DNA of 64,000 nt from Candidatus Omnitrophota bacterium (GCA_003485765.1 DNHS01000011.1:9929-73928), one strand, 5' to 3'; shown: positions 24,083 through 64,000, counted from the stretch's first letter. Program-made: numbers and translations. The notes: generated from the letters alone by a model not told the origin.

Positions 24083-24177
24083 ATGATAAATATAACATAA
24101 TGAACGAATAAAATCAACCTACAGTTAATCGTCCTCCTCGCGCAATGTTACAAATTTCTTAACATTGTTGCATTTTT

Positions 24178-29085: not shown

Positions 29086-29170
29086 TTGACTCCGGTTTGG
29101 TTCATGGTAAAATGTCCACTAATAGGAAATGTCCACTATTAAGTGGACATTTATAGGAAATGGACATTTA
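29086..29170 (+). promoter_or_regulatory. Promoter with extended -10 (TTGACT, 16 bp spacer, TGgTAAAAT) overlapped by four copies of an AAATGTCCACT / AGTGGACATTT half-site; putative autoregulatory operator.
   Basis: -35 at 29086-29091 and -10 at 29108-29113. Half-sites are at 29110-29120 and 29127-29137 (direct), 29142-29152 (inverted), and a degenerate copy at 29157-29168. Confidence 0.55.
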
Positions 29171-29188
29171 GAAGAGGGAGTAACTACA

Positions 29189-29863: not shown

Positions 29864-30647
29864 AGAATTTTCCGGAGAAAAACTCCTCATCAAAGTCATA
29901 GACGATCTTGCAGATTTCTTGCCGTATTTGGTCCTTGTCGGAGGTTGGGTGCCATATATCTACGCCAGATATATTTGGAAGAATGTCCCCAATATGGCAG
30001 TAACAACTGGAGACATAGACTTTGGTGTTGGCGCACAGGATTACAACGGCAAGGATACTGTCGCTTCCTGTGTGCAAAGACTGGGTTACGGAGAGCGCCA
30101 TGTTTCTATGGATAGGTCATTTCCATTCGTTCCTATTGTTAAAGACGCCTCTGGAGACGTGAAAGCCGAAGTTGAATTTATTACTGATCCCAAGGTCTCG
30201 AGAAAGCTTGTAAATAAAATCGTAGGCCAAGAGATCAAGATCAATGAGATTCAGCATTTCAGTTTACTGCTTGGTTCCGTTTTAACGGCGCAAATGGACC
30301 TAAAGAGTATTCAGATACCGACCGAATCGATGTTTACTTTCCACAAATTACTTACATTTGTCGATCGGGAGAATAAGGAGAAATTAAGGAAGGATCTGTA
30401 TTACGTTTACTATATGCTGAGATTCTGCCCTAAAAGGGAACAACTTGCTGATGATGTGGTTGCTCTTATTAAAAAACGAAAAGAAGGAAAACAGGTAAAC
30501 GAAAATCTCAAAGAGTATTTCAGTAGCGTGGATTCAAAAGGACCTCTTTTTGTAGAGCAGGAAAACGGCCCAGATGCTTATATTGATAATGTGAGACAGG
30601 ATGCCTTTGATAAGTTTAGCGGAATCAGGGGAAGGGTTGAGGAGTGA
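29856..30647 (+). CDS. Nucleotidyltransferase, AbiEii/AbiGii-toxin-like
   Basis: Polymerase-beta-type NTase motif LVGGW...TTGDIDFGV near the N-terminus; 263 aa. Translationally coupled to its neighbours. Confidence 0.45.
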   Translation: MSKEFSGEKLLIKVIDDLADFLPYLVLVGGWVPYIYARYIWKNVPNMAVTTGDIDFGVGAQDYNGKDTVASCVQRLGYGERHVSMDRSFPFVPIVKDASGDVKAEVEFITDPKVSRKLVNKIVGQEIKINEIQHFSLLLGSVLTAQMDLKSIQIPTESMFTFHKLLTFVDRENKEKLRKDLYYVYYMLRFCPKREQLADDVVALIKKRKEGKQVNENLKEYFSSVDSKGPLFVEQENGPDAYIDNVRQDAFDKFSGIRGRVEE

Positions 30648-53300: not shown

Positions 53301-56300
53301 AAGAAGGTTTTAGAGGCGCTTGGTATTGAGATTTCAAAGATAGAAAAAATTATCATTACCCACGCAGATATGGACCACGCTGGTGGAGCGCTTAACCTTG
53401 CAAGAGAATCTGAAAAACCTGTATATGTTCACAGAGATTTTCAAAAAATCCTAAAGAGCAGATTTCATTACAAAGCTAATAATCAAGATGAACATTTATT
53501 AGATTATCTTTGCACAATGGTATTTAAGATAATGAGCGATTTTAGAGAGCCAGATGGAATTAAAAATATCTTTTATTATAAAGAAAGCTCAGTATCAAGA
53601 GAATTTGGAGGTTTAGGATTTAATATGCTGGCCGAAGAAGGATTTGGAGATACTAAGATTCTGGTTTTAGAGGCAGGGGGCCATACGCAGGATGGCATAA
53701 TTATTATGCTTACTGATAATAAATATAACCCGCTGGGGATAATAAGCGGAGATGTGTGTATACCCAAAACGATTAAACCTGAACAGGCGCGGTTTGTATT
53801 TACTTTACAAAGATTATCAGGACAGCTTAATTTGGATGAAGGTACACTAAAGAAAACAGAAGAAGCGCTTTTAAGCGTAGAAGGTATCCGCATCTGGCCT
53901 GGCCACGGGAAAAGTTATATGACAGGAAAAAGAATCGACAGGGATTTATCTGATGCTGCACGGATGCCATTGTTGCAACCGTTTTATGATAGATTTGGCT
54001 CAGGATGGGTCGGACAGGCGTTAATGCCGACTCTTATAGAATCTGTATTAGGAGGAATACTTTTTACAACAATCATTAATTTGCTTGGGACATTTATCTT
54101 TGGCATACCGTTTTCTTTCGGCCCGCCGTCTCAAGAGATACTATTTGGTTTTTTCCTGCTATTTCATTTGCTTCATCTGCCGGGAGCGCTCGCAGAAGTG
54201 CCTGGCGCTACAAACCTCCAACAGCTCAAATTCGCATTCTCCGGTGGAAAACTCCTCACAACATTACCTGCCTTTATCCTGGTCGCATTAGGTCTGCTTG
54301 ATCCGATGAGCGGGCTTATCCTTCATACCATACTTCATTTTGTTGAGAATATTTTTTGGAGGGATATAAATAAGCATTACAGAATTGTATCCAGGGATTT
54401 AAATTCTTCCTGGGGACGGAATTTGATAGAAAAACAGTATGAATCAATGGAGATAAATTCGAGTCTATATCAGCTATTCTTTATATTAATTTTGCCGTTT
54501 TACGCGCTTAAAAAACTATTACAGCATGTATCTGTCGCAACTATAGAAGGGATTAAAGAGGCGTGTGGTCAGTTAAGTAAAGGTTACAGCGAAGCTGGAA
54601 AAAAGCTGCCACAGGGTTTTAGTTATCTTGATGAGCTGGAAAAAGACGATATAATTGCTACCATAAAACTGGTAAATCCGGAGGTGATTACGCCGCACGA
54701 AAAGGCCGCTGACGCAAGCGAATTATATAAAGTTATTGCAGCTACAGGCATATTCTCATGGCCAAGGGTTCTTATATTTTCCCAGATAAAATATGATAAA
54801 AAAGAAGACAGGTTTGTGAAATTAGACGACAGTTTATTGCTTGATTTTATTATGGATACGCCGGTCCCTAAATTTATTATAGCAGAATTTTTTATACGAA
54901 ATTTTATAACACCATTTCTTTTATTTGCGTTAAATTCCCGCTTTAGCGCAGTTTTTGTAAGAAGGTCTATTCTACATTCAGGTTTCTTCTCGTGGCCCAT
55001 AATAGTTGCCAAGGCGCCCACGGGCAGTCTGTATGAATATGTGATAGTAGATGGGACCAATCGCTGGAATGTGGCAAGGATATTGGGATTAGAATTGGTG
55101 CCTGTGCAGGTTGTTGATTATGAGGCAGAAGAACCGGCTACAGGAAAAAAATTAATCAAGATTGGGCGATGGGACATGCTTGCAAGGATTAAACCGTCGG
55201 ACTGGGAAGAATTTAAGGTTTTTTGTAAAAGCGAAAGAATTGGTTTATTTGAGATGACGGACCTTAATCAGAGTATTGGAGAATTTAATGGAGCGCCATT
55301 TGCAAGGTTCTGCTATGTGGATGAAAATGACAAGATCGCTTGGTATGCATTAGGAGACCCGGGGGATAGAAGTATAATTAATAGCGGTTCCCATGGTTTT
55401 AAAAAGGCGTTTAATTTGGTGTACGATTATATGCTGGCTAAATGGATTCATGAGGGCATTGCCAGAGACAAAATACCCAATGCTCACGAACTTGACATTT
55501 CAAAAATGCAAAAAGGAGATCTCCTAATCTTGCGGCCTATGTTGACAAAAGAGGAGATACTTGCTTCCGCAAATACAGGAGCGTGGATAGGAGTTAAGAC
55601 AGAGCGTCATGTATTGGATGGGCTTATCGGCAGGGTAGTTGGAGGGGTTGCAGTGCCGCTAACCACCCTTATGGGATTAGATGGAAGTCCAGATGAGGTT
55701 AATATGAAATTACATAATGACCTTGCCAATGCAAGATGGGTAAGATTTCATAAAGATTCATGGCTGGATAGATTTTACGGCGAAAGTACCCTTGCTCCAG
55801 AATTTCCTTTTGGTATAAAGACCAGTCTGATATTTAAGGATGTTTCCAATGGCTTTGTTCTTCAGTTTAAAGGGTATAGGGATATAGGCAGGCTTATTTT
55901 CAATCTCCGGAATTTCTTTAAACTACCATGGTTAGCTGCAGCGCTAAGCTCTTTTGCTATAGTGCCGTTTGATAATCTTAACCCTTCAATTTTACTTGAT
56001 AGTTCTACAATAGAAAGTTTATTCAGTATAAATATTATCTTTGTATTTTTAGGCATATTCGCATTAATTATTTTAACCCTCACCCCTCTTAACCCTATTG
56101 CCGGGATAGGGCTTTACAGGCTCCTTCAGGCGCCTTACAAAATTGCTCCACAAAAGTTTACCACAACATTAAGCAGAAAACAGTGGGAAGATTTTCGCAA
56201 TCCCCACTGGATTTATTCTATTTCTAACATCTTTCCTTCTGGAGTGAAAATGCTGGCAGAGAGATTTCTTTGGACTACCTTTGTTCAACAACAGGTGATA

Positions 56301-59300
56301 AGGCTTATACTGGATGAATTTAGGCCAGAAGCAACCGCTCAATCCCATTTTTTTGGCAGGCTATACAGCAATCTTATAATAAATTCGATTAAACTATTAC
56401 GCCCGAAACTTTTAGCTCTGAACATGATTTCTATTTTAGCAGTAATGCTTTTTTCGCCTTCCGGGGCTCTATTTATTCTTAGTATAACTGTGACAGTTAT
56501 TGCAAGTATTATTATGTTTGTCTATGGAGAGCATTTGCGGGCAAGAATTGTAAGGCGCGGTTTTGAGGTAGGCCAATACGCCCATCTTAAAGAGAATTTA
56601 CCCTCTGACAGAGAAATGCCTTTATTTCATAAGGCTTTTGATTTTCTCATTGAGAAGTCTAATGTCTCTATACAAAAACCAGGATTTTTCCGCGACAGCG
56701 GAGACCTTGCTATTTTTCATGTAATGAATGTAGCTGAAAGATTTGCAGGCAGGGTTAAATCTATGAAGCAAAGATATCCTGATCTAAACTGGATATTACC
56801 CGGAAACCTTTCTGGTAAAGATAAAGGTTCTAATTTTGAAGATGAACTTTTTGCCGCAAGCATGTTGCATGACATAATTGAATCTAAACAGGCCACCTTA
56901 GATGAAATTGAGCAGAGATTTGGCAGAAGAGTCCGTTATTATGTACAATTACTGACCAAAGATGATGTGGATGAAAGCCTTCCTCCTGAAGAATTGGAGC
57001 GCGAGGAGGCAAAACGCGATAGAAAATATCTTGAAGGCTTGTATAGCGGAATACATAAGACTCCCCAAAAAGATAAACCCTGGGGATTACCCTGTCTGCT
57101 GATAAAACTTGAAGATAGAATGAGCAATATTGAGACGATAGACGCTTTTAAAGATGAACAAGGAAAGTCCAGCATAGAACGTCAGATAGAATATCTTAAT
57201 GAAACAGTTTCTCTAATGCTTTTTGGCCATTTTGCATATTTATCTATATGTAAAGATGACGGGAGTTTGGAAAAAGCTCTTTTAGATGATGTTTTAAATA
57301 ATCTTAAAGAAAAATTATATGAGAATTATAGGCGTCTTGAGACCTGCGGATTGTCCCAGGAAGAGCTTAAGAAGTTAGCTTTTATAAAAGAAAGACTGGA
57401 AGCAATCGAAAGACTTGCGGAGTTTCACGGGGATATTTTTAAAATAGGTTCTATTTCTATTCCGCTGACATTGGATTATGTTTTATTGGCTGAAGCAAAT
57501 TTTCGTTATTTAAATAAAGAGGACGCTAATAAGAGAAGGCAAAAAGAATTAGCAGTAGGAAATATATTAGAAGCATACAGATTAGCTGGTGTATCTATTT
57601 TGCATGAAGCAAGAGCAAACTGGCCATTACTTGAGGCAGTCGCTATCTTTGATGAGGCTATTACCTGTCAGGCGCAATTAGGTAAAGAAGATTTAAATAA
57701 TGCTCAGGAAATCTTTGCTAAGATAGCTATGCTTATGGAGCCAAGTGGATTTGAAACCCAGTATAAGAATATATTTATAAATAAACGCCCGCAGGAAGAA
57801 GGCCTGAGGTATTTTGTTTTAATAAATCAGCCCTTTGGAAGAGAAAGAGCAATTCTTGCAGTATCTACTCTGCTTCCTGTTGAGGATAGAGACGTTAAGA
57901 AAGCGCTTAGAAGAAATTTAAGAGCTTCTGCAGGATTAAGAGATGTGGAAACGCCTAAAGCAAAAGTTGACAAGATAAGGTCTTATTTAAAGAAGGTATT
58001 AAATTTATTAGAGATATGTGACGAGAATATAGAAAAAACTGTTGATAATGTTTTTAATCATATGAGTTCATTTACTGCAGAAAGAAGACAAGCTTCTCTT
58101 ATGAAATTGTCATGGCTATGCAAGGCATGGGGTGAAATGTCTGATTTAAGAATAGCTAAGCTGCAGGCAGCTATTCTTTTAGGCAATCCACTTCTACATA
58201 GCGCAATATTTTCTAAACAGCAATTACCTGAAGAAGATTTAGAAATAGTAAAAGAGATAGAAGAATATGCCGCTTCCTATTATCGAGGCGGATTTAAAGA
58301 ACTTATGCGGCAAGTATTCCGCAGGTATTTTAGCAGGACTTTAGTAAATGATGAACTAAAAAGCCAGTATAATGAGCTTCTGGCTTTGGCAGGAGATGAT
58401 AAATTCTGGGATTTATTATGGGAGTGTTCTGAGAAAGAAGATTTAACGCCTCCTGACCTTAACCTTCTTTCTGTATGTATTAATGACTGTTTTTCAAATC
58501 TACCCATTGCTACATCAGCGCAAAGAAAAGAGGTTTTTGAAATTATCTCCTGGGCGAAGATGGAGGGATTTTTAAATGAAGCAGTAGGGTTGCTTAGCGA
58601 GAAAGGGATTCCTCGCAAGGGAGATATCCGTCATCCCTTGCTTGTTTTACTCCTTTCTTATTTACAAAATCCAACAGAAGAAAGAAAAGCATTGTTAATT
58701 GGAGTATTAAAAGAACTGGCGCAGCCTGAAACGCATATTAAAGTATCAGAGGTTGAAACAATGTTTAAGACCGATTTAGCTCCACTAATTTCTCTGGCTG
58801 AAGAAAATGAGACTATTGGCAAAGCTTTAAAAATTGCCCATAAGGCTTATAATGGTCGTTTCTTCTTAGGTGGCGCACAAAGATATATTGACCATGCTAT
58901 GCTTTATGCTGCACATGTCCTAAAACTAGCTAAAGAACTTGATTTACCATTATCTATTCAGGAGAACCTTATCTGCGCTGCTCTACTGCATGGTTTAGAG
59001 CAGGATATAGATGGCATAAAAACATATTTGATTAGTGAAGGAGAACTTGATAAAACCGCGGCAGAACATATTGCCAAACTTGCAACAAAGGTAAGAGACG
59101 TTACAAAGATACCTTATTTTCCACCGGAATCAGGGACCTATTTTATCTATAACCATATGAATCTTATAATACAAGAGGCAGCTTCGCCAGAGGTTATGCT
59201 TCTGGCATTCTGCGACCGCTTAGCCAGTATCTCAGTCGTAGGAAATATTCCTTCCAATCTCAAACAATATGCTGACTATGTGATTAGAGAAGCAAAACAA

Positions 59301-62300
59301 ATCTATATTCCCCTTGCTGAAAGGTTAGGATTATCCAGCGTGGCAGGTGAACTAAGAGAGAGGATATTTTTCTTGGAACAAAGAGATGTATATTTAGCTA
59401 CAAGAGAGCGGCTATTAAAATATGAAATGTTTGGCAGGGGAATGGATTATGAGGAAGCTAAGAGAAGATGGGAGGAAGATGAAAGATTGCAACTTGAAAA
59501 TGAGTTGAAAAATTTAGAAACCAGAGTTCCTGGGCTTATAATCGAGACGCTCAGCCTAAGAACAAAAAATATTTATTCTATCAGGGAGAAAACACAGCGA
59601 AAACCAGACGAATATCCTGGCCCAGAGTCTGAAAGGGATATATTTGGAATAAAGATTTTGATTAATTCGAGAGATTATCTTGCTAGGGTATTAGAATTTC
59701 TCTCAAACCGCTATGGTGTAAAGACAGTGGGAGCAGAGGAAAAGCATAGACTATATAAAGTTTATCATCTTAATCTTCAGGATGAGCAGGGTAGATATAT
59801 AGAAATCCAGATATTCTGGGATAAAGCTGAGTATTTGAAAGAAAGAACAGGTGAGTACGCTCACTGGGTAAAGAAAGCAAGTGAAGAAACCGGGGAAAAA
59901 TTTTCTCCTGACAAAGTTGAAAATGATATGGGAAAACTTGTCCCTATTGAACTGACAGGAGATTTCTTTGAAGATTTTAACGCTATCCATGGTTCCCCGG
60001 TTATAAGAAACTGGGTTTACGTAGTTTACCATCCGGATGGCAGAGCCTTAAGGCTAAAGAGAGGCGCTACAAGCGCTGATTTTGCTTCTCTGCCCCGCAT
60101 CGATCGTTTTGATGCCAATTTTAGCGGAATAACTATCGCAAAAACCAGCTTGGATTTAATATCTCCACGTGAAATACAGGATGAAGAGGAACAGGCACTT
60201 CTTATTTATCATGATATGATAAGCGTCGCTATACGTGAGCATCTTGAGAGAGGTTTAAATAATGAAATATCTCCTGGAGCTGAAATTTTGTCTTTTAAGA
60301 AGAAAAATGAATATCTTTTAGGTAGCGAAGGTGAAAAACGTAAAGCAGAAATCGAAAGAACAGCAAAACATCTTCGCACAATTCTTTTGCTTAGGCTACT
60401 TTCATTGAGCAAACCTGCAGAATTTCGGGCTGAAAAAATAGAAAGAGGCAAGAAAGCGCTGGCGCGGACTTTAGGTATTGATATTAAAAGAGATTTTCAG
60501 ATGCGTACTTTTCTAAGGCCGCTTGTTTATCAATATGACTTGGCTGATGCGGATGAATTATATATTTGCCTTGCCTTGGCAGAAGAAGGAGATAGGGCAA
60601 TAAAAGAAAGATTATTTGATTTATCAGATATCAGGGAGATGGCAAAAAATATCGGGCAGGAAATATTAGAGAAGGAAAAGATTCAATTAATGGATAAGGA
60701 TTTAACCAACTTTAATTTTGAATCAAAAGAGCAACTCTATATTGCCCTGGCTACAGGGCAGATTGAGACATCTGAAATCATCAAGCGTAGAACTTCTAAT
60801 AAGGATCTTTTTGTTAAGAATATGTTTGAGAAACAAATTTCATTCGATTGGGCTGCTTTTCGTAGAGGTGAAGATACGTCATTAAAGATCTTAGCCGGAG
60901 CATTTATAGATACAGAACAATATGTCCTTTTATATGATTTAAAGATAATCAAAGGCAAGCATATTATTATCAAGAATGCAAATATTTCTAATCCGCGCGA
61001 TTTTGTTTTATTGGAGTTAGTTATAGGGATGCTTAAAGACCATGGCGCTAAGGTTACAGTATCAGGGCTGCAACTTGCATATTTAGATACTCCAGAAGGT
61101 AGGCTTCATACTGTTATTCTTAAAGGCATTATAGAAAGATTAAGCAAAGGCACGCATGATTTTAAAAAGGCATCTAAAACGCGGCGTATTACACCTAAAC
61201 CAGATCAGATATTATGTCTTGGCGCGCAAAAACAGGGTTTGGCGCAGACACTTGCAGAAAAGTTTAATATAGGATATGCAGAAGTATCAGTAACCCCATC
61301 TGCTGATGAATGGCCACTCGTAACACTCCCTGAGTTACAAAAAAATCTAAAGCATGTTATGCTTGTGGCTGATAGCGCTACTGATGAAGATGTTTTGAAG
61401 ATTCAGTTGACAGTTGCGCTGCTTAAAGCTAAAGGGGTAAAAGAGGTTATTATAGTAGATCCATATATCAGGTATTCCCGCCAGCATCATTTTGAGGTAA
61501 ATAAAATAGGCCAGGCAGGCAGTAATAGTTTCAAGACATTCTTGGATATTCTTGATGGTTTTTCTGGTGGAGATTTTAGAGTCAGCGCGCTCTTTGGCGC
61601 AAATATCCATGCAGTGAAATATGATGATAAGACTGGGGATAGAATATTGGCAGTAGGAGGATATACTGGGGGCATTGATGTTATAGATATAGATGTTTTA
61701 CCTGAAGTTGCCAAATATTTTGTCCAGAAATTTAACTTAGGGCCTAAAAAACTATTTGTGATGGCAACAGATAAAGGTTCTAATTTCTATGCGCAGAATG
61801 TTGTTAACTTTTTGAGAACATTAGGATTAGATGTGGAATTTGTATATGTGAAAAAAATACGTATAAGCGAGACAAAAGTTATATTTGAAAAGCAGATATT
61901 TAGAAAAATCCAAGGAGAAGAAGCAGAAATTGATTTGGATGAATTGAAAGAAGCTGATGTTTTAGTCACAGATGATGAGCTTCGCACTGGAGGCACGCTG
62001 CGTGAATTATGCGATTTGTTAATGAAAGATTTAGAAATTGGCAGGGTCTTTGTGGGCTTTACGCATGCTATATTCTCAAAAGGCCCTGAAGCTTCCAGAG
62101 ATATGTTTAACGATCTCTTGGAACAAGGCAGAATGGCAGCTTCGAATTCTGTCATCTCTGTTACTGAGCGTAATGAAGTCTTGCCTGAAAAGATAAATGT
62201 TGATAGATATATTGTAGACAGTATTTATAGTCATATAGGATCGAATAGCTCTGCAAACAATTTAAAGCAATTAACCCATCACATTATCCCATCCGAACTT

Positions 62301-64000
62301 TTCAGTATTTCAGTCCTTGCGCTAGTATCAGGCATTGTCCCAGTTATCTTAAAGGTTTTGTTTAGGATAGATATACCTGATTGGCTGCCATACCTTAATA
62401 TAGTGACTGTGCCACTAGCTGCATTCTTATTTGGATTAGCTATTTCTATACAGCATACGCTTGACTTGTTAAAAGATACGCTTCAAATCAGAGATGGGCC
62501 ATCAGCAATAAGATGGATTGATTCTCTCTTTAAAAAGAAAACTCCGTCACTTATTGCTGAATTTACAGAATCTGATCAAATTAAGCACGATTCCACCAGT
62601 TACATTGCCTATTATTCTCAAAAAGATAAATTGATCCATATAAGGCGCGAAGCTGTCGAGCAATACCAAGACTATATCCAGCGTCTTATCTACATTAAGG
62701 AAAAAACTCAGCAAGCTCTTAACCAGCCCAAGCTTCCTAATGAAATCATATCCTATGCAGTAATGATTTTAGCAATTGCGCCTGTAATGAGCTTGGAGTG
62801 GAATAGAGGAATTAGATATGCCAGCCTTGGAGCTATGTACTGGCGTCTTTATCAGCATAGCAGTATGCCAAAACATCTGACTGCCGCAATAATCTATTAT
62901 GAAGAGGCAATTAAAGAGGGTGTCTGGAAGAAAATTATCCCCCTGAAGATTCGGCAGGCTATAGAAACGAGAAATACCCCTTATGATAGCGATATGGGAG
63001 ATACTTCATGGCAGGATATAGAAGTATTTGCTGAAAGAGGCCGTGAGGCTATAAAAAATATACTTGGGCAATTAAAATCTGAGATTGAGGCATTTCAAGA
63101 AGCTATCTTCGATGGGCACATAAAATTAAAGTCAGTTGAGCAGTTTCGGCATATAAATAACTGGGTGCATAAGCTCTTTCTGATAGAGGTTGAGCTTCAG
63201 GATAATAAATCCCTTTCATTCTATCTTGTCTATCCAAAAAAAGGAGAAATGCGTGTTATTTTGAAGGGCCCAAAACGCATAATGGCTGATACAGGAAAGA
63301 CCCACCAGGAGCCAGATATTGAGATTAGTTCTCTTCAGAGATATTATGAGGAAATAGAGGATATTGTAGGATTTCTACAGAAGGAATTCAGAAATCCTAA
63401 TGTTTTTCTGGGAGAAGTTAGGTATCTTCGAAAAAAAAGAAGCGCGCAGGTTTTCTTTTCTATAAACTCAGAACATATACAACTTGCGCGAGCAGCTAAT
63501 CCGCTTATCAGTTTTTTGGCAGGGCAATTACCCGATACCTCGTTTGCCTTTCATTCTGCCATTTGCTGGGTAGATACTGAATCTATGGAAAGATATGACG
63601 GAATCGCAGGGGTGCGCTTTGTATACCTGCCTCGCAGCTGGCTTAGACAGCTTACGCCTAAAAAAATCGCAGATATAGGGCACGAATGGTTTCATATCAT
63701 ATGGACAGCATGGCTGAAAAAGGAAATAAAGATTAAAGAACGGCAAACAGGTGGGGCTATACTGCGAGAAGAGGAAATTAGCCATCTCTCAAGGATGGAT
63801 AGGCTGAGGGGATTTGCGTTAAAAGAAGAAGCGCTCTTATCTCTGAGAAAGTGGCTTGCATCAAGCTCTATTTACCGCTTTATTTTTGAGGAAGAAGAAA
63901 AAAATCCCGAAGAGTTCCGAAATGACTTAGCCGAGGAAATTATTGCGCAACTTATAGAGGCTATATTTAAAGGCGATGCTGCCATAGTCAAACCAGAGGA
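35394..64000 (+). CDS. Giant multidomain membrane-anchored protein, 3' partial. It reaches at least 9,535 codons without a stop and runs off the window.
   Basis: Frame 0 (positions divisible by 3) was translated manually from the ATG at 35394; an in-frame TGA lies at 35385-35387. No stop was encountered through nt 64000. The ORF track lists no + strand frame-0 ORF over this 28.6 kb, which is consistent with a single unterminated frame. Spot checks at 45000, 49980, 56100, 63480 and 63960 all read as sensible protein. Signal peptide MLDWQNKTWIKIISTVLIVAFLTYDIAWA. Neighbouring genes use TAA, TAG and TGA as stops. Confidence 0.7.
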   Translation, partial: MLDWQNKTWIKIISTVLIVAFLTYDIAWATDFTPLQKKQYTSRSLFKNKKVDQTTISSQNEQSLETIKDALSHKKNNNTKDSIYHKDSTLSLKASYINDIANIYINDTLGKVIDSYTSPNSKGTVIHIQDLHTNPEASLNLANILEILIKDYDLNLVCSEGASGIVDTSSVSNFPDKDVREKVARVFINSGELTGEEYLSITKYPNLPIWGIEDKDTYFQHIIEFNKIIKFSKDALNLINQIKDELNNLKPKIYSKALLDLDSKEIEYQESKLDTTKYLEYLLNLAKEITSEATSKSSPRNDISLSNYKNITIFKETLNLEKTIDQSKIIKESQEILSSLQSILKDKDNKNELKSLSIKASLFKDKKISPFSFYSYLDELARRHIKDLDSYTNLINFVSYLKKINSLDSNKLFNEIEELTFDIKDLISDNPNQKLLTKALRNIHFLESFFNLKVSNEELEYYLKDKDSFKVTFFESYLKENLQKYNIDSFINYNPDLIDKNLPDLENFYGLAHKRDLAMFNNTTSEIETRKPKLTALIAGGFHTQGITKLLKDNNYSYVVISPYSKTTIDEENYRNLLAGKRKPLKELIKGLNEKLRPLMGFVNRGVRKDYNNQVPPTLRVLGIIIAEAQPLAERVTMLLAVAGGQTTEPVTTLAAIAPDLHTVVTSTESVLPDVRIEGIKPEVTATVPLAYSSADLTMTDPLEAVLPSATSTSRVEAAVVSLTDETSASYTTTTQVFAPPGAVTTTMQEQLAILPPEEVVTFTGPTIGRTSISTVTSAAALPKAKTVVSTVTTAVAGASVMFFQQQGTNEPFSTAFLLSAIAVGIISIALLVFVLWHSKRAQEIDEVEHFFNEEAYDSDSIIVPLDRGEIVKKAPFIIMTILAWIYFAAHLEMSHKFVWLLLIVSLGFYGGGVLSNIIEPLLSEHMESRDFKSLRGANPADLFQLANAIVSYGIIGYFMGPVMNLDTFPAIVLGIAVGLLFYRFHIYHHFIERYFKAYTKFKNDPYSIAITNGQPMPLWLSPLYKIYDVAFYILGIFEVLLPILAVKTLISPAMEGAILPLDSGSPQLALFAGTILASFKSAGTRISHWKSDLSAVLRTHVKLLPIVLIILASGLNLVFGVAMQSQGGGLQFELLFPILAFISAVSVFIWLSWKLPDGLPKPMIMFFAAAAAYIVVGYGLPLLIYNAHVFAYGLGVPGLPTPWPTGTPIPTLTPVPTWTPTMTPTATSTPLPTFTPVPSSTPFAPGSTLQPPLIDQSQGDFMGPVWSALAIAGFYMFMCVTALIEFGKSLSIRAKAGIVVIPVLLMWLAVYYLDPALALALNQLWSDLWLSLTTGLTGSLLEPGTSQLALSAGTTLAVSAALLGKTHKSIDEIEKVVLSGALEPGQRVELMLEMAGLLKAADNEAGGASDTGEQLPLFEAETLTSPARLVIETQEGKSLYDTAREKIVAPFLDALSGWIQVIQQGPTNMPKGLGRLVGDARNIFGLSEVIGHRSRQDLDTMWQKDKPDPFLLWTNWEQYKDTSDSKDILLRDAIAMRLWEMLIGLINTRLVKLEKDFLNEEAEHNLKDAELKLMDPNAKTIAHFPQMSSIRAQINGLAAARKAIVLSGPAELYKMLTAIKLGKSSEWTLTQRNHVKEFLNQHIDGGVYQIKLIRILEVLNEWQEEHFVVISAPSEMQPIALINQRLAALFDPATFAEGLRLVAATVTDAQGFTKRLAIVIQAVVGDGAGEKAQMNRKAIAIALVGLLEQSNPQTAIVLVAQTIRALVEDKPGLAYDLAGDLAGLSPERFNQVVDGNIEVLGNIMNALGWGQLPALNQSEAVINKMEQVELNADPIDALTSGPLDDVFFQQLNAELSPETRKTIRRIPSLAAFLLGLKPIFYNSRNNPNIHRVVLNMIEAPSVQKRLAAGQWSMSQSPWRGIILASRDWISQIDDVLKIALADANREALAKQVFDAAGEFFARTHGNPLTLEEQTQVLDTVNSQLATLPYDEVLEGVVCGIPLLDAVLFGVFRGLPETFHLPFGGLPSEFSIPNLRYFNQRFPAAPDYVVFTQFFAERLKKWDSKIAQAYGRMEHNGYSNSGSVYIDMVNPEIGMLRNQVEVILEAARKVGKSIKIWLRVKHRVSIDTNKLPEERRWLGDIVNRADGDSIEGILSALEKAGVDTSILPDDYNSRLNTYITTLAQLGKALVIDPTQEVSPQQGADFNEAFEQCRMALESAGFNGPPESEDLLIPSDMTDSYLIFERISARWNNLITSLASEVYNQTLKATNNPDAAWVAANLILTTNGAEGVSLTTSPLIIKDDTFNNASKLLSPLAHLGLVTASSILNLGAGDTLDISIVAAEAEPAPKLAYDANRKTGAALVMGARDGLPAEALEVFASDTRDNSLWATAAVEPVAVSKMHADVADDITVVSIDQNLPTADLVHDVLEALKLTLMVEGDADESAATLQQHEAHLLVEAKRVKDVREIAKKGAKDYVAEHLNTEVVIEEHTPSYVPLSTEDIENKSLRKAIGRINRELIARHPITAGVLAELYDIALGRKKDGVDEADSFRKLVTVIAEAMRQEAEKQPSPGTSPIEDFPVRLLLRDGECYFVTRRTMLTLPEFVSGVTQAHGVLLPQAVDWSIFAQHVWDSMILRGEALQAVVERAMVLQEAFLKETARSYTKTYGQSFQTVRTIQGLVEVPPDTYRFTDLYPDLLQTGDTLRQQLPSIDPVRRIIAGAKQPLETEADIERLVEQPAREVVRHLKRLGVQTDTANAYGSGLKRVSWEGPDGNFYITLLQRESYNIEALSTEPLQPKAPTDMVLEELSEWIGDRPQQLAKQYEAKLEALQEQHADNPEALANALEAFHAERQAALQKFAEEIFSKTIESLAAMSVDDQIAHTLANFITQWALAITGAYSVSATESHPQGRFLYPAGCLARGIEGLTRKMYQDIRREGLSCSFNRDKTRRTSVYPEAVSFALCPDEMFASGRTTAIDKFGPSKSKDNVTFVLDPEWVKANKGKFKLVGSVFDPSGPSRIRYSEGLELLGLEKHEYEVEVRVIGTDLFVGNRDEIHFISISQEQFEDIPPEAILGIIARPEKIIEMLQWDRELGLGSLPMFAWKREPYVRKLSLFDPDVEETNAQLALKVITEAKNRIAQAGDLETIRAMNDIFEFARKLGAVEIEGEEAGSCFTSEMGILALDENGWGIIEEMRKDASAFNHLRESDGYIQLLARLGEYDKVNGPGIYFNREAVLQREREQRYKVTKSYFVIKLYELLVSEFNLIDIDFYQTTFYKHPIVLEGGFRFASLMGPDELQVILTLIKKYMDSRFLSREGIREYIVKLMEDSGTQEFHEESLEMFTSGVDRDMLRALRSQPAVVPAPAGNDSETAGTGYFSGEKWADIFSGRSSQIKDNDLTAHYQERILRVVEDALRKNSLDDTDRAIFQAVANGLRQGAYYIYGFKGIVVGSNDYCLGLHSFNPGFSRLFLATDVMAELETVGGPELVDAYFLRLLQSSSSQRYNMSLENAMLRGFIDGERHFIELRGFKTPETERLAEETAREFLEYTVVREYLRASGVYQGFDLQKLCGFILDETTGAWQPPEIEGGRRLKLYVSASEDIEQLRREIRNGLWHVLRVTPRSIEGRLTSEAKKILPPEVIEQIERIGSWDLAKWTEDDFNAITLSGRAIYLKLLNPIRIGNETFEAVRLIGSVALELLPPLLIPHRRGRGLNIDSKGAIERGGFDPLGGLILEGALTETETLLLLRQAGYDVSYPCGHYRYPGQVFEGDETGFSVMLMHEGQEKRMFDQWGEIMNTSGFSRGRHVLGPIYKMGRFSRWIQENLGRTWPGQHYTNVSLTGAELRSVRFHDFKESKVLPDNIAQAVGLRFLDIAEFVMHNEYSIKMGADSEQAIERVATELKLAKAYLEGYFADLLNKPDPRIVNFLTEEEFPNTIEFIKSVMRNSIPSGEYYSVPIYQIKHPLIALLIELEEKRQSRRERLASPGGLGTSSDISSSVASSLMGVRNDSLRVIPLAEMTLRKVPKKPVEQGEPVSEEINTAVTAEAENAAAAAKAQKVDTVQAEAVVGNAIQSLIHLTNQVTNLINNMGEGKYASQPNALEGIQRQLKAVVERVVDVDKIPASTSGIDVVKGQIRTLEILLGFLEALEPGKSATGMAPEQADSPDSLANIISQLQIILAQFQAERVKLGNKIEEWRFQRSLTGLSGLEKFLGAVIALTAIIIAPFGIGYLAGGISGVVAVWFALFLLTVSWAPLDWFMKEDWKAGTVSLGIATLALLFLPKFGVSAADYLIYPWTAWMAIGMFRMILGGIRGNRNDFSAVEADAYQGIDFSQIAVNLRNSWPVRLLNWLTFSVIFPAIQLVSEQIRQALSDDEFKKQIAALGDTIVQSYQEAVTAGNALQETVKDVQGEMEAIQGEMGRLSINVETAGNEITGLFSQFKELEKLSQKLEDEIGQARQEVEKRWADALPAARAKAEQVKALHSQMSALADDSQVHIDRIHTFDHERKQALLARFSALRESIEKLNSGVAKTKEVLDALELQVQKSRNSLKQRNLAVAQQHVNTGKQLVALAEQLLEQVDKGVRDAELEWEPAITDDAVSQGQFEVNLEQEKEALRVDKQRMADLLLKAASLVEEMVIEKQVIRAETAHVITNARAAGGQLRRATMTMEESLEAIRLRSGGLSGEVDTAGQKLQEALDKLGKSRSAADKEIGNIIQARAKGDTALKEIGRFRDDLIGKRVDSKSVQTKLLELSLQVEQAQDAINTAGETAKALLPNQKIWNEALQAMMLVARTAHDVLSRQYERTRLAEERLTEAEAVNMSGSEEYQALIASGQAEKLAMASLNADIETMISRGLADIAESLLATRAQRALLIKTYTDWIASVKAARENMGQQLALFGEALERIDYLIEERKSQKALQLSLQAKFRQLEEELRPGEVTLEIRGEDWIRMIGDENLLRVLIEKNPFLRVDNIAYVLSNNGAPVILYIRIQVLSPDERIFRPIEVGFGFEARQETLRIAKERMQELRAISDPLLKLLEDMREQFGIPETAIKWEDSRSSVKGRMLVRRLPPAEEDKGIPIQDVFGYGILGAIEKSRQPEWVDQLIKAQETEPGSLLEEFVRFMESGRTTTDPRSRPGWASSGGWGSAMPAERKLQEVSLVTADSAVMHRPNVGWHNDAGRLWRRQGIGGLLPIFTRMFKAVGIDGLKRILFFQPLLEWLCFTVLPSSIAIYITGQPITSPEGLLIFGVVGVFMQIPFLLGHISDKRLLLPAALVAIGASLPGALLVLGFSLPLAVVALGPLIAHIAINSVFRIYLLSIDTLPSNSDAFSEISARAPPFVLRAIWLRLVINNVLKVISEDKKVILTGHNNYEAIKEVYYEIARRKPEALDKIYIRPKYITKNITPRVKAKLDKLKSKYPDTLPLNILINVTIIEGKDGIRIYRAPLLRELKNNEVYRLNLESSVQNGVGEFALRKENFPADDPERVIVCELAGRLVSGVITYIKEGDIPNTYNMLRDEFENKEVLLKGEVTLWCYWIFSRSITLWPKALIYFIGEWIKFISSGRRTPKPSWKKIKLRGLGSQTVDAVIEYVKHLKTIFGDDVQIVIAAYSRASEYYKFHAKVMIENENDYINKFFKQFNVIWGGHSGINYYPYAVVKKETEDKYNKAGFDELFAYLLWLKDKKYKLAEAHKYFGLFLIEHQEYRVFDDTIWFHCRNALAKGMVPVVGPVQLNSRPEDIEGGYANVPVFYRGEQRRQIITNSILNNEAIKNRLGDAEGAELRTIYDNIIDLAVQAIIDGEVNKEKLDKLCGDLRGRAPSNPEKIGEFLLDLYYLLRNENYFNLEKQTLLKIFTRLFAELIAPFRMTRPADVRYPAKMADNISKALDNSISRAETLIAKIGGEFRVKETKLSDIETTIEFVNETDKPFISCQKIRVSSEVEITQIRFEDGANVEIIAKGDAENRSYIMVDGSMSVTYPALKKVLEALGIEISKIEKIIITHADMDHAGGALNLARESEKPVYVHRDFQKILKSRFHYKANNQDEHLLDYLCTMVFKIMSDFREPDGIKNIFYYKESSVSREFGGLGFNMLAEEGFGDTKILVLEAGGHTQDGIIIMLTDNKYNPLGIISGDVCIPKTIKPEQARFVFTLQRLSGQLNLDEGTLKKTEEALLSVEGIRIWPGHGKSYMTGKRIDRDLSDAARMPLLQPFYDRFGSGWVGQALMPTLIESVLGGILFTTIINLLGTFIFGIPFSFGPPSQEILFGFFLLFHLLHLPGALAEVPGATNLQQLKFAFSGGKLLTTLPAFILVALGLLDPMSGLILHTILHFVENIFWRDINKHYRIVSRDLNSSWGRNLIEKQYESMEINSSLYQLFFILILPFYALKKLLQHVSVATIEGIKEACGQLSKGYSEAGKKLPQGFSYLDELEKDDIIATIKLVNPEVITPHEKAADASELYKVIAATGIFSWPRVLIFSQIKYDKKEDRFVKLDDSLLLDFIMDTPVPKFIIAEFFIRNFITPFLLFALNSRFSAVFVRRSILHSGFFSWPIIVAKAPTGSLYEYVIVDGTNRWNVARILGLELVPVQVVDYEAEEPATGKKLIKIGRWDMLARIKPSDWEEFKVFCKSERIGLFEMTDLNQSIGEFNGAPFARFCYVDENDKIAWYALGDPGDRSIINSGSHGFKKAFNLVYDYMLAKWIHEGIARDKIPNAHELDISKMQKGDLLILRPMLTKEEILASANTGAWIGVKTERHVLDGLIGRVVGGVAVPLTTLMGLDGSPDEVNMKLHNDLANARWVRFHKDSWLDRFYGESTLAPEFPFGIKTSLIFKDVSNGFVLQFKGYRDIGRLIFNLRNFFKLPWLAAALSSFAIVPFDNLNPSILLDSSTIESLFSINIIFVFLGIFALIILTLTPLNPIAGIGLYRLLQAPYKIAPQKFTTTLSRKQWEDFRNPHWIYSISNIFPSGVKMLAERFLWTTFVQQQVIRLILDEFRPEATAQSHFFGRLYSNLIINSIKLLRPKLLALNMISILAVMLFSPSGALFILSITVTVIASIIMFVYGEHLRARIVRRGFEVGQYAHLKENLPSDREMPLFHKAFDFLIEKSNVSIQKPGFFRDSGDLAIFHVMNVAERFAGRVKSMKQRYPDLNWILPGNLSGKDKGSNFEDELFAASMLHDIIESKQATLDEIEQRFGRRVRYYVQLLTKDDVDESLPPEELEREEAKRDRKYLEGLYSGIHKTPQKDKPWGLPCLLIKLEDRMSNIETIDAFKDEQGKSSIERQIEYLNETVSLMLFGHFAYLSICKDDGSLEKALLDDVLNNLKEKLYENYRRLETCGLSQEELKKLAFIKERLEAIERLAEFHGDIFKIGSISIPLTLDYVLLAEANFRYLNKEDANKRRQKELAVGNILEAYRLAGVSILHEARANWPLLEAVAIFDEAITCQAQLGKEDLNNAQEIFAKIAMLMEPSGFETQYKNIFINKRPQEEGLRYFVLINQPFGRERAILAVSTLLPVEDRDVKKALRRNLRASAGLRDVETPKAKVDKIRSYLKKVLNLLEICDENIEKTVDNVFNHMSSFTAERRQASLMKLSWLCKAWGEMSDLRIAKLQAAILLGNPLLHSAIFSKQQLPEEDLEIVKEIEEYAASYYRGGFKELMRQVFRRYFSRTLVNDELKSQYNELLALAGDDKFWDLLWECSEKEDLTPPDLNLLSVCINDCFSNLPIATSAQRKEVFEIISWAKMEGFLNEAVGLLSEKGIPRKGDIRHPLLVLLLSYLQNPTEERKALLIGVLKELAQPETHIKVSEVETMFKTDLAPLISLAEENETIGKALKIAHKAYNGRFFLGGAQRYIDHAMLYAAHVLKLAKELDLPLSIQENLICAALLHGLEQDIDGIKTYLISEGELDKTAAEHIAKLATKVRDVTKIPYFPPESGTYFIYNHMNLIIQEAASPEVMLLAFCDRLASISVVGNIPSNLKQYADYVIREAKQIYIPLAERLGLSSVAGELRERIFFLEQRDVYLATRERLLKYEMFGRGMDYEEAKRRWEEDERLQLENELKNLETRVPGLIIETLSLRTKNIYSIREKTQRKPDEYPGPESERDIFGIKILINSRDYLARVLEFLSNRYGVKTVGAEEKHRLYKVYHLNLQDEQGRYIEIQIFWDKAEYLKERTGEYAHWVKKASEETGEKFSPDKVENDMGKLVPIELTGDFFEDFNAIHGSPVIRNWVYVVYHPDGRALRLKRGATSADFASLPRIDRFDANFSGITIAKTSLDLISPREIQDEEEQALLIYHDMISVAIREHLERGLNNEISPGAEILSFKKKNEYLLGSEGEKRKAEIERTAKHLRTILLLRLLSLSKPAEFRAEKIERGKKALARTLGIDIKRDFQMRTFLRPLVYQYDLADADELYICLALAEEGDRAIKERLFDLSDIREMAKNIGQEILEKEKIQLMDKDLTNFNFESKEQLYIALATGQIETSEIIKRRTSNKDLFVKNMFEKQISFDWAAFRRGEDTSLKILAGAFIDTEQYVLLYDLKIIKGKHIIIKNANISNPRDFVLLELVIGMLKDHGAKVTVSGLQLAYLDTPEGRLHTVILKGIIERLSKGTHDFKKASKTRRITPKPDQILCLGAQKQGLAQTLAEKFNIGYAEVSVTPSADEWPLVTLPELQKNLKHVMLVADSATDEDVLKIQLTVALLKAKGVKEVIIVDPYIRYSRQHHFEVNKIGQAGSNSFKTFLDILDGFSGGDFRVSALFGANIHAVKYDDKTGDRILAVGGYTGGIDVIDIDVLPEVAKYFVQKFNLGPKKLFVMATDKGSNFYAQNVVNFLRTLGLDVEFVYVKKIRISETKVIFEKQIFRKIQGEEAEIDLDELKEADVLVTDDELRTGGTLRELCDLLMKDLEIGRVFVGFTHAIFSKGPEASRDMFNDLLEQGRMAASNSVISVTERNEVLPEKINVDRYIVDSIYSHIGSNSSANNLKQLTHHIIPSELFSISVLALVSGIVPVILKVLFRIDIPDWLPYLNIVTVPLAAFLFGLAISIQHTLDLLKDTLQIRDGPSAIRWIDSLFKKKTPSLIAEFTESDQIKHDSTSYIAYYSQKDKLIHIRREAVEQYQDYIQRLIYIKEKTQQALNQPKLPNEIISYAVMILAIAPVMSLEWNRGIRYASLGAMYWRLYQHSSMPKHLTAAIIYYEEAIKEGVWKKIIPLKIRQAIETRNTPYDSDMGDTSWQDIEVFAERGREAIKNILGQLKSEIEAFQEAIFDGHIKLKSVEQFRHINNWVHKLFLIEVELQDNKSLSFYLVYPKKGEMRVILKGPKRIMADTGKTHQEPDIEISSLQRYYEEIEDIVGFLQKEFRNPNVFLGEVRYLRKKRSAQVFFSINSEHIQLARAANPLISFLAGQLPDTSFAFHSAICWVDTESMERYDGIAGVRFVYLPRSWLRQLTPKKIADIGHEWFHIIWTAWLKKEIKIKERQTGGAILREEEISHLSRMDRLRGFALKEEALLSLRKWLASSSIYRFIFEEEEKNPEEFRNDLAEEIIAQLIEAIFKGDAAIVKPE
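37830..39490 (+). other. Giant protein: first polytopic transmembrane region (about a dozen hydrophobic helices) containing a Pro/Thr-rich linker at 38979-39150
   Basis: Runs of 20-25 hydrophobic residues (e.g. FLLSAIAVGIISIALLVFVLW; IIMTILAWIYFAAHL) and the linker GLPTPWPTGTPIPTLTPVPTWTPTMTPTATSTPLPTFTPVPSSTP. Confidence 0.5.
47990..50200 (+). other. Giant protein: second TM cluster (47990-48450) followed by a roughly 570-residue coiled-coil-like region rich in A/E/Q/L/K/R heptads
   Basis: Hydrophobic helices (VIALTAIIIAPFGIGYLAGGISGVVAVWFALFLLTVSW...) are followed by heptad-like sequence such as LQETVKDVQGEMEAIQGEMGRLS...LEQEKEALRVDKQRMADLLL. Confidence 0.45.
53260..53930 (+). other. Giant protein: metallo-beta-lactamase-fold domain with a variant metal-binding motif (TH-A-D-M-DH-AGG instead of HxHxDH)
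   Basis: IIITHADMDHAGGALNL at 53352-53386, then downstream LEAGGHTQDG, ...GDVCIP... and IWPGHGK, matching MBL motifs 2-5. It resembles the glyoxalase II THxHxDHAGG signature with a His-to-Asp substitution. Confidence 0.5.
55030..55115 (+). other. Giant protein: ParB/sulfiredoxin-like (DGxxR) nuclease-fold motif
   Basis: YVIVDGTNRWNVARILGLELVPVQVV resembles the ParB N-terminal domain core. Short match identified by eye. Confidence 0.3.
56640..57260 (+). other. Giant protein: SpoT/RelA-type HD (p)ppGpp-hydrolase-like domain with intact catalytic residues
   Basis: AIFHVMNVA (His), AASMLHDIIESKQAT (HD plus ED..T) and LLIKLEDRMSNIETI (Asp) align with SpoT YITHPLAVA / AALLHDVIEDT / LIKLADRTHNMRTL. 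Confidence 0.6.
58821..60180 (+). other. Giant protein: complete long-RSH N-terminal module. It has a degenerate HD (HG instead of HD), a RelA/SpoT nucleotidyltransferase ((p)ppGpp synthetase)-like domain and a TGS domain.
   Basis: KIAHKAYNGRFFLGGAQRYIDHAMLYAAHVLKL...AALLHGLEQD aligns with the SpoT HD domain. The synthetase motifs are DIFGIKILINSRDYLARVL, YKVYHLNL, RYIEIQIFW and EYAHWVKK (compare D.xGIR, GYQSLH, EIQIRT and AHWxYK). The TGS-like segment is VYVVYHPDGRALRLKRGATSADFA. Confidence 0.65.
61200..62190 (+). other. Giant protein: full-length ribose-phosphate pyrophosphokinase (PRPP synthetase, Prs)-like domain
   Basis: ILCLGAQKQGLAQTLAEKFNIGYAEVSVTPSADEWPLV aligns with the Prs N-terminus ([35 protein letters not shown]). 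VIIVDPYIRYSRQHH aligns with AVIPYFGYARQDRK. VLVTDDELRTGGTL aligns with the PRPP-binding loop ILVDDMIDTAGTL. The whole domain is about 330 residues. Confidence 0.6.

Follow-up and report, generated by a model that had tools for sequence, protein, structure and literature searches.

A predicted PRPP synthase cassette, of divergent archaeal type, following a RelA/SpoT homologue in a giant membrane protein of Candidatus Omnitrophota

Organization of the giant open reading frame

The DNA analyzed here, referred to as "the window", is a stretch of 64,000 nt from a Candidatus Omnitrophota bacterium. In its + strand a stop-free frame of 9,537 codons, found by frame scan, extends from 35388 to 63998 and is still open at the 3' end of the window. 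The giant open reading frame (ORF) contained in it begins at the first ATG (35394..63998) and encodes at least 9,535 amino acids (aa), continuing past the window end. The subject of this report is a module located in this ORF between about 60876 and 62237, related to ribose-phosphate pyrophosphokinase (Prs, or phosphoribosyl pyrophosphate (PRPP) synthase), together with the RelA/SpoT homologue (RSH) cassette preceding it. All features are on the + strand, unless otherwise indicated.

The domains recognizable in the visible part of the giant protein, by Pfam and by structure, are a metallo-beta-lactamase (MBL) domain, HD_4 (found twice), RelA_SpoT and Prs; no Pfam match is found in the first ~5,900 aa. 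HD, RSH and Prs domains are all located on one soluble stretch of ~1,900 aa (giant aa 7049-8964), enclosed between two transmembrane (TM) hairpins. Their order along this loop is: an HD_4-like domain, a long RSH (HD_4, RelA_SpoT, a TGS-like segment and helices), then, directly, the Prs module.

The Prs module

In a first-pass annotation, made from the sequence alone, the segment 61200-62190 had been described as aligned along its whole length with ribose-phosphate pyrophosphokinase: Pfam, NCBIfam, PDB searches and structural modeling (AlphaFold2 followed by Foldseek) agree with this assignment. The segment is in frame 1, within the giant frame 35388-63998, and both strings quoted for it, VDPYIRYSRQHH and VTDDELRTGGT, are found in its translation. 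Its extent needed revision: Prs sequence is indeed present there, but the module is longer, from ~60876 to ~62237, starting ~110 residues before 61200.

Two Prs domains are delimited. The N-terminal one (61200..61625) is matched by Pfam Pribosyltran_N and contains residues R214, H257 and Q215, invariant or nearly so in the alignment described below. The C-terminal, phosphoribosyltransferase (PRT)-type domain (61626..62237), which includes the C-terminal strand and helix, is matched by Pfam Pribosyltran above the cut-off and, by Foldseek, by PRPP synthases. Of the two Pfam models by which the assignment could be checked, Pribosyltran passes on the isolated segment (E 4.7e-7, 29.7 bits against a cut-off of 26.3), while Pribosyltran_N is just below (22.3 against 25 bits). 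Among the NCBIfam models, the best is NF002095 (ribose-phosphate diphosphokinase, archaeal-type; E 2e-18), aligning residues 26-317 to positions 4-250 of a 287-position profile. The nine best PDB matches found by phmmer are all Prs; the top ones are the archaeal class III enzymes 1U9Y, 3MBI and 3LPN, the best being 1U9Y from M. jannaschii (E 3.6e-7).

The AlphaFold2 model of 60840-62250, built from a 30-sequence alignment, has a predicted local distance difference test score (pLDDT) of 87.9 and a predicted TM-score (pTM) of 0.90. When it is compared to the PDB by Foldseek, the top 50 matches are all PRPP synthases, with E values from 1e-14 to 1e-12, ~350 aligned columns and target-normalised TM-scores of 0.75-0.84. 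A match of this length indicates that both Prs domains are present; according to the model, 61200-62190 is a full two-domain Prs fold. The similarity is therefore not the generic Rossmann one of a phosphoribosyltransferase (PRTase) devoid of the Prs N-terminal domain, which is present. A generic PRTase reading (Apt/Hpt-like) was rejected, since the N-domain, the structural matches over the full length and the K-x-R loop are specific to Prs.

The module is strongly divergent. In an exhaustive HMMER search of 1.84 billion representative proteins, only 45 were found at E<=1e-3, and canonical Prs came up only with E values of 1e-7 to 1e-4. A word-index homologue search found nothing for the module and, for the alignment, four canonical Prs only, though relatives are in the collection; it was not used for counting RSH-Prs fusions. 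No second Prs is found in the 64 kb window, the only match being a weak one, at 23369-24118 on the - strand, to a ComF-like PRTase. This gene (DZR_2 + Pribosyltran, 23366-24082, - strand), which is not a Prs, is the sole other PRT-fold gene in the window.

Conservation of catalytic residues

Residue conservation was evaluated on an alignment of 30 sequences (A1); identity to the window sequence is ~20%, and higher (34-73%) only in the three relatives nearest to it. Invariance is found exactly at R214, H257, D311, K339, R341, D378, D379, G384 and T386; Y212, Q215 and G313 are nearly invariant. In the N-domain, R214 and Q215 belong to the RF-loop YSRQHH (61473-61490), and H257 is the active-site His of the motif ANIH (61599-61610). 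In the C-domain, D311 is the Mg-binding Asp of ATDKGS (61764-61781), K339 and R341 (K8823 and R8825 in the giant protein) form the K-x-R motif of the catalytic flexible loop KKIRIS (61851-61868), while D378, D379, G384 and T386 are located in the ribose 5-phosphate loop TDDELRTGGT (61968-61997).

This set maps to R96, Q97, H130, D169, K192, R194, D218 and D219 of P0048, a canonical class I Prs, positions which we take to be R96, Q97, H131, D170, K194, R196, D220 and D221 of the E. coli enzyme. The roles of Lys and Arg in the K-x-R loop are presumably those known from the enzymes of E. coli and B. subtilis. Of the elements singled out in the first-pass annotation, the catalytic Lys/Arg loop, the Mg-binding Asp and the ribose 5-phosphate loop are all conserved, as is the Mg-binding His, judging by invariance in A1 and alignment to P0048. 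When the Prs module is compared to its close relatives, dN/dS is 0.24-0.31, a value indicating purifying selection.

An additional half-domain carrying the FLAG motif

The sequence preceding 61200 contains an extra, partial copy of the Prs N-domain (60876..61169), supported by profile comparison, AlphaFold2 and conservation. By hhalign it matches the Prs N-domain over 61 columns with a probability of 98.9% (E 2.6e-17); it is not detected by the Pfam search, unlike by profile-profile comparison. Its block-mean pLDDT is 82-95 and it is modeled as part of one compact unit with the rest of the module. Many distant relatives can also be aligned from ~100 residues upstream of 61200.

In class I PRPP synthases (PRPS), the Glu of the FLAG region of one subunit forms a hydrogen bond with adenine N6 in the site of its partner, while R96, in the RF-loop, contacts adenine N1 (10.64898/2026.06.01.728777). 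The FLAG-type motif F-x-D-x-E is kept in the half-domain, as FIDTE (60903-60917): in the long-type relatives, that is those including this region, F and E are present in 18 of 18 sequences and D in 15 of 18. Most long-type relatives have, like the window sequence, lost F-x-D-x-E from the true N-domain, while all canonical sequences of the alignment covering the FLAG region keep it there. Because the motif has moved to the half-domain, and because the FLAG Glu acts on the partner subunit, the half-domain may supply the FLAG function in cis (F8506...E8510). The cassette would then be a built-in pseudo-dimer, which could work without the usual oligomer, as would suit an enzyme tethered in a giant polypeptide.

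The RSH cassette and the upstream HD domain

The HD domain of the long RSH (58824..59333) is detected by Pfam HD_4 with E 3.8e-10 and 40.1 bits (cut-off 27.2). It is degenerate: in comparison with 7OIW and 8ACU, LLHGLEQD, aligned to FLHDVIED, replaces LHDxxED, and CDRLASIS replaces ADRLHNM(R). Such motifs would make the window RSH a RelA-like pseudo-hydrolase. The synthetase domain follows (59559..59870; Pfam RelA_SpoT E 3.3e-10, 40.7 bits, cut-off 27; phmmer to 7OIW E 9.6e-13) and keeps its motifs RTKNIYSIREK, DIFGIKILI, EIQIFW and AHWVKK. The best PDB matches of the cassette are the N-terminal regions of Rel proteins. Further downstream, a TGS-like segment (VYVVYHPDGRALRLKRGATSADFA, 60003..60197) has a weak Pfam TGS match (E 0.037, 14.5 bits) and aligns to the TGS start of 7OIW, and a helical region (60345..60827) comes next, spanned by the blastp alignment of giant aa 7787-8467 to the RSH cassette of P0008, a distant relative described below.

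No zinc-finger domain (ZFD) or ACT/RRM domain was found by Pfam at E<=10 between the RSH helices and the Prs module (60720-61230), and 59940-60900 yields only the weak TGS match. Since no ZFD or ACT is detected before it, the Prs module occupies the place these domains usually have in Rel and RelA. The claim that Prs lies directly downstream of RSH in the same polypeptide frame holds, with HD_4 at 58824-59333 and RelA_SpoT at 59559-59870.

A further domain, HD_4-like and probably similar to small alarmone hydrolases, is located at 56838..57176, ~640 aa upstream of the long-RSH cassette. Its Pfam HD_4 score (E 3.8e-5, 23.9 bits) is below the cut-off of 27.2, but its motifs are intact: MLHDIIES (56862-56885) and KLEDRMSN (57105-57128).

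Membrane topology

By Kyte-Doolittle hydropathy, about 25 TM-like segments are found in the giant ORF, grouped in 7 clusters, in agreement with the first-pass description of the protein as membrane-anchored. The TM hairpin opening the loop (56394..56531, giant aa 7003-7048) has hydropathy peaks of 1.7-2.7 and is followed by HLRARIVRRG; the one closing it (62280..62471, giant aa 8965-9028) has peaks of 2.2-2.5 and is followed by the Lys/Arg-rich KDTLQIRDGPSAIRWIDSLFKKK. Because the TM flanks are rich in Arg and Lys, the loop of giant aa 7049-8964 probably faces the cytoplasm, according to the positive-inside rule.

Relatives of the module

All named relatives of the module are from Omnitrophota. 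The closest ones (P0001, P0002 and L004, 70-74% identity) carry it at the C-terminus of much smaller proteins, of 1.1-2.1 kaa (thousand amino acids); P0001 is identical in length and match pattern to NCBI OIO34682.1, a complete protein of 2,102 aa. The loci nearest to that of the window come from Ca. Omnitrophica CG1_02_40_15 and Ca. Omnitrophota OS_PC_MetaG.mb.108. P0001, P0002 and L004 contain no RSH and share no synteny with the window; in them, the place before Prs is taken by another conserved module, which resembles giant aa 5332-5851. Upstream of the giant gene, no synteny was found between the window and locus L001.

In the giant protein, the region of aa 5332-5851 (51381-52940) is 42-47% identical to the module that P0001 and P0002 have directly before their Prs. 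Pfam finds nothing in it, the PDB sequence search gives one match at chance level (E 0.019), and its AlphaFold2 model, from a 3-sequence alignment, is unusable (pLDDT 49).

Other relatives show the module alone or in varied company. Stand-alone versions of ~500 aa exist, such as P0009 from Ca. Kaelpia imicola, annotated as hypothetical. In more distant carriers, large Omnitrophota proteins, the module is joined to an ARMT1-like phosphatase and a hexapeptide transferase (P0007), to HD, PRK/uridine kinase and amino-acid kinase (P0016), to a cytidylyltransferase-like domain, CN-hydrolase and NAD synthase (P0039), to glycogen phosphorylase (P0022) or to CheR (P0020).

Only one of the module carriers includes an RSH: P0008 (MFA6358535.1), a 5,805-aa fragment filling its whole contig, where the order is PGK, HD_4 + RelA_SpoT, Prs, a 6-phosphogluconolactonase-type domain and a second Prs. 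Its RSH cassette is 28% identical to that of the window over ~680 residues (blastp E 1e-49), the two being much closer to each other than either is to solved Rel proteins; its HD is also degenerate (FHC, by eye).

The cassettes of P0008, including RSH and Prs, are separated by a repeated linker of ~105 aa containing YHELISHI (HExxxH), found at aa 1-106, 2371-2474, 3136-3242 and 4198-4299. The same linker is found in P0007 (aa 868-974) and is absent from the window protein. It may represent a cassette boundary or a self-processing element.

Other features of the window

The GC content along the giant ORF is ~32% at 35.5-37 kb, 44-48% at 38.5-50.5 kb and 35-40% at 52-62.5 kb, the GC-rich stretch (38.5-50.5 kb) being essentially without Pfam matches. 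Similarity to P0001 is also uneven, 56-77% for the N-terminal and Prs modules and 36-42% for the module corresponding to aa 5332-5851. Taken together, these two features hint at module shuffling or insertion within the ORF.

An N-terminal hydrophobic anchor motif (..AF..DI.WA..; 35394-35460) is common to the N-termini of P0001, P0002 and P0018, large Omnitrophota proteins otherwise unlike one another. In the Pfam-dark middle of the giant protein, after a TM cluster, a long coiled-coil-like stretch (48552-48836, within giant aa ~4380-4960) shows similarity of the TMF_TATA_bd type, below cut-off (E 2.9e-5). The MBL-fold domain (53250-53705; Lactamase_B E 9e-14) is upstream of the HD/RSH/Prs loop, and ~420 residues after it there is a weak ParB_N-like match (54963-55127, E 0.004), where VIVDGTNRWNVARILGL is recognized by eye. 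Beyond the loop, an HExxH motif (GHEWFH, 63681-63695) is located in a context resembling, by eye, the repeated linkers of other Omnitrophota giants; Pfam gives no support for this region, which may code for a metallopeptidase with a processing role.

Ahead of the Prs module, neither an internal promoter nor a Shine-Dalgarno start was seen. Terminator-like hairpins are in excess in 56000-64000, inside the coding sequence (16, against 5.9 +/- 3.2 in shuffled sequence), while promoter-like sites are not enriched there (18 against 22.8).

The 35 kb upstream contain ordinary chromosomal genes of a diderm bacterium, such as those for RND efflux, ptsI, yvcK, ahcY, miaB, miaA and hflX. Four tRNA genes are clustered at 12071-13056 (Arg-TCG, Lys-CTT, Leu-TAG and Gly-GCC). 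At 29129-30647 two overlapping genes, one AbiEi_2 antitoxin-like and the other NTP_transf_8 (AbiEii-like), form a probable toxin-antitoxin pair; their Pfam labels are taken from the identical genes of L005. The short-read contigs L005 (ENA ERZ27254745 k141_2571680) and L006 (SRR6482978_149) encode an HflX identical to that of the window, and end ~0.4 kb and 0.17 kb, respectively, after hflX, at the start of the giant gene, which shows how such giant genes break assemblies. In L005, miaB is called as two ORFs (245 + 134 aa), instead of the single 406-aa ORF of the window.

Discussion

The results reported above are best accounted for if the region ~60876-62237 encodes a divergent PRPP synthase cassette of archaeal type (class III-like), predicted to be competent, and part of a membrane-anchored multi-enzyme giant protein. 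To this reading, derived from sequence comparison and modeling, we assign a probability of roughly 60%. The cassette would convert ATP and ribose 5-phosphate into PRPP and AMP: ATP would be bound by R8698 and Q8699, ribose 5-phosphate by the DDELRTGGT loop and Mg by D8795 and H8741, while K8823 and R8825, on the flexible loop, would catalyze diphosphoryl transfer. The existence of the module as a stand-alone protein of ~500 aa, and its association with varied other enzymes, speak in favor of independent function.

A number of observations weigh against this reading. The Pribosyltran_N match (E 1.3e-4) does not reach its cut-off, and no NCBIfam Prs model reaches its equivalog cut-off (NF002095 66.5 against 296 bits, TIGR01251 64.8 against 113), although the E values of both are significant and such low NCBIfam scores are expected, the segment being a very divergent member of the family. 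The RQD motif is changed to RQH, and ~20 aa are inserted before the C-domain. At the FLAG position of the true N-domain the motif is degenerate, SADEW (61299-61313), with Glu replaced by Trp. The ATP site of canonical Prs is shared between subunits, in a dimer or hexamer, an assembly that may not be open to a tethered cassette. The topology of the loop was derived from hydropathy and the positive-inside rule only. Finally, giant proteins may be processed into pieces, as has been proposed (10.1101/2023.11.21.568195).

Class III PRPP synthases (M. jannaschii 1U9Y, T. volcanium 3MBI/3LPN, S. solfataricus 4TWB) are the known enzymes to which the module can be compared. The two-domain fold is shared, with target-normalised TM-scores of 0.82-0.84, and none of the RQ, His, Asp, K-x-R and DD..TGGT residues is missing. 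In contrast, the module is only ~18-20% identical to them, features the additional partial N-domain with FLAG, the RQH variant and the ~20-aa insertion, and is embedded in a giant membrane protein, while class III synthases are free, oligomeric enzymes of ~285 aa. A pan-domain PRPS survey of 2026, based on more than 35,000 sequences, defined many classes (10.64898/2026.06.01.728777); a word search of its main text found no extensions, insertions, fusions or additional domains of this kind.

A similar comparison can be made for the RSH. RelA-type long RSHs are composed of pseudo-hydrolase, synthetase, TGS, helical, ZFD and ACT regions; the window RSH corresponds to them in its HD_4/RelA_SpoT organization and degenerate HD and, less clearly, in its TGS-like segment and helices. 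It differs in featuring Prs instead of a detectable ZFD or ACT, in being part of a giant TM protein and in the presence, upstream, of a separate HD_4-like domain with intact motifs.

The pairing of RSH and Prs in one membrane-anchored giant protein had been considered unprecedented in the first-pass annotation. This cannot be maintained, as P0008 (MFA6358535.1) has the same RSH-then-Prs order and membrane-anchored Omnitrophota giants, tiling many enzyme domains on the cytoplasmic face, have already been described (10.1101/2023.11.21.568195; 10.64898/2026.06.07.730766). Like the members of this class, the window protein is of Omnitrophota origin and combines many TM segments with tiled enzyme domains, and its relatives include PGK, NAD synthase, kinases and phosphorylase; unlike them, it contains ~5,900 aa without a Pfam match. 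The catalogue of such giants published in 2026 (10.64898/2026.06.07.730766) deals with proteins of at least 10 kaa; in the window, 9,537 aa are visible and the gene runs beyond its end. The main texts of both reports (10.1101/2023.11.21.568195 and 10.64898/2026.06.07.730766) mention neither RelA/SpoT nor ppGpp (guanosine tetraphosphate) nor PRPP synthase. Full-text literature searches combining RelA_SpoT with Pribosyltran(_N), or Omnitrophota with ppGpp, returned nothing, no paper on an RSH-Prs fusion was found, and such a fusion is not mentioned in the RSH survey of Atkinson et al. The arrangement, in which a RelA-like RSH is followed at once by Prs within one giant membrane protein, is rare, and no earlier description of it was found. 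What stands out here are the relocated FLAG motif, the Prs in place of the RSH regulatory domains and the prospect of activities that can be assayed in giant proteins otherwise opaque; the class of giant multi-enzyme proteins was already known.

As to the meaning of the adjacency, two proposals had been advanced. Coupled nucleotide-signal synthesis is possible, but obligate coupling is not indicated, as relatives with 70-74% identity contain no RSH and most others are joined to unrelated enzymes. The alternative, a co-opted nucleotide-binding scaffold, is disfavored by the invariance of the catalytic residues. The RSH-then-Prs order recurs once, in the very distant P0008, which hints at a preferred arrangement but is far from showing an obligate pair. 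Since the fusion is not unique, the giant class is known and the nearest relatives contain no RSH, the simplest reading is that of an independent enzyme cassette co-localized with alarmone metabolism, and the adjacency most likely reflects co-localized nucleotide metabolism. Regulation in cis, with ppGpp acting on the PRPP loop, is a possibility, attractive because (p)ppGpp (guanosine tetra- and pentaphosphate) binds the PRT-type PRPP loops of HPRT, XPRT and PurR. These proteins share with the module the PRT phosphoribosyl loop, where (p)ppGpp competes with PRPP, but are single-domain PRT folds, that of PurR being its non-catalytic effector domain; in the module, by contrast, the two Prs domains are present together with the catalytic loop specific to Prs.

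Regulation may be imagined to go further. The HD-like domain, the RelA-like RSH and the one-and-a-half Prs could form one integrated, membrane-tethered control unit: with Prs in the ZFD/ACT place, occupancy by PRPP or ribose 5-phosphate, or Prs turnover, would gate alarmone synthesis in cis, (p)ppGpp would shut off PRPP synthesis at the PRT loop, and the half-domain would make the Prs a self-sufficient pseudo-dimer. We regard this elaborate scheme as unlikely.

Similarly doubtful is the idea that the Prs-like unit makes little or no PRPP, and is a regulatory or sensor module replacing the ZFD/ACT of RSH, a ligand switch through which PRPP, ribose 5-phosphate, ATP or (p)ppGpp would gate alarmone synthesis. 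The module does start right after the RSH helices, with no ZFD or ACT detected, and the same order is found in P0008, where the RSH cassette is only 28% identical. Binding of (p)ppGpp to PRT-fold proteins at the PRPP motif is reported for HPRT, XPRT and PurR (PMC6783271; 10.1101/2020.03.04.977603; PMC8789054), and the loss of the FLAG Glu from the true N-domain, as well as scores below the cut-offs of curated profiles, point the same way. Yet all Prs catalytic residues are invariant at an overall identity of ~20%, relatives with 70-74% identity and stand-alone forms of ~500 aa occur without RSH, and in P0008 a repeated linker cassette is interposed between RSH and Prs.

The cassette might instead be a diphosphokinase of altered specificity, using a donor other than ATP or an acceptor other than ribose 5-phosphate, and producing an unusual pyrophosphorylated metabolite or signal beside (p)ppGpp. 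The strong divergence, with canonical Prs reached only at E 1e-7 to 1e-4 in the 1.84-billion-protein search, the change of RQD to RQH, the subfamily-specific insertion and the remodeled FLAG region could all be interpreted in this way; moreover, class II PRPS, which are without the FLAG Glu, accept several diphosphoryl donors (10.64898/2026.06.01.728777). The DD..TGGT ribose 5-phosphate loop, the K-x-R loop and the Arg/Gln of the RF-loop are nevertheless all intact, the FLAG Glu is kept in the extra half-domain, and the enzymes co-fused in relatives, for instance those of the NAD pathway of P0039, either consume PRPP or are neighbors of enzymes that do, so that a change of substrate appears quite improbable.

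Much less credible is a role as offensive effector, in which RSH and Prs would be ATP-consuming weapons of a predatory Omnitrophota cell, delivered to its prey or active on it, comparable to exported or toxin-type alarmone synthetases. A link has been drawn between giant proteins of Omnitrophota and predation (10.1101/2023.11.21.568195), there are alarmone synthetases that are exported and RSHs that are toxins (PMC12691689), and RelA/SpoT and PRTase domains are found in phage polyvalent proteins (PMC5512222). The TM hairpins with their positive-inside flanks, however, point to the cytoplasmic face, the RSH is of the long Rel type, with a TGS-like segment, and not a small, toxin-type alarmone synthetase, and the sister cassettes are anabolic enzymes of housekeeping type. 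Searched with PADLOC at E<=0.01, the Prs, RSH and HD cassettes gave no match; the only matches were generic MBL-fold ones, with no defense-system assignment. Polyvalent proteins, encoded by phages and conjugative elements (Iyer et al. 2017, PMC5512222), do resemble the window protein in being long mosaics of cassettes shuffled between relatives, which can include RelA/SpoT, PRTase, ParB-like and metallopeptidase domains; they are, however, soluble products of mobile elements whose PRTases are ComFC-like, not Prs, while the window ORF is chromosomal (miaB, miaA and hflX being its neighbors), has many TM segments and contains a true Prs.

Least probable of all is an artefact, in which the giant frame would be an assembly chimera, or the cassettes would never be found in one polypeptide and their fusion would be biologically meaningless: short-read contigs with an identical hflX do break off where the giant gene begins, the ORF is uneven in GC (32% to 48%) and in the closest relatives the module belongs to proteins of 1.1-2.1 kaa, but chance cannot produce 9,537 stop-free codons at 40% GC, comparable mosaics are seen in independent database proteins of 5.8-6.0 kaa, one of them with the same RSH-Prs order, and the Prs module is under purifying selection.

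The reading of the module as a competent PRPP synthase cassette has consequences at several levels. If the cassette is active, a central-metabolism enzyme, providing PRPP for purines, pyrimidines, NAD, His and Trp, is encoded as a tethered unit of a giant protein, and the question arises whether such cassettes are the only copy of the cell. The transfer of FLAG to an extra half-domain suggests a route from an obligate oligomeric enzyme to a self-contained module, of interest for both PRPS evolution and enzyme engineering. An RSH with Prs in the ZFD/ACT place is a natural experiment on how alarmone synthesis can be regulated without a ribosome-sensing C-terminus; should the integrated control unit turn out to be true, it would represent a new PRPS class and a new wiring of the stringent response to nucleotide supply. 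For the largely uncharacterized giants of Omnitrophota, two concrete and assayable predicted enzyme activities are added.

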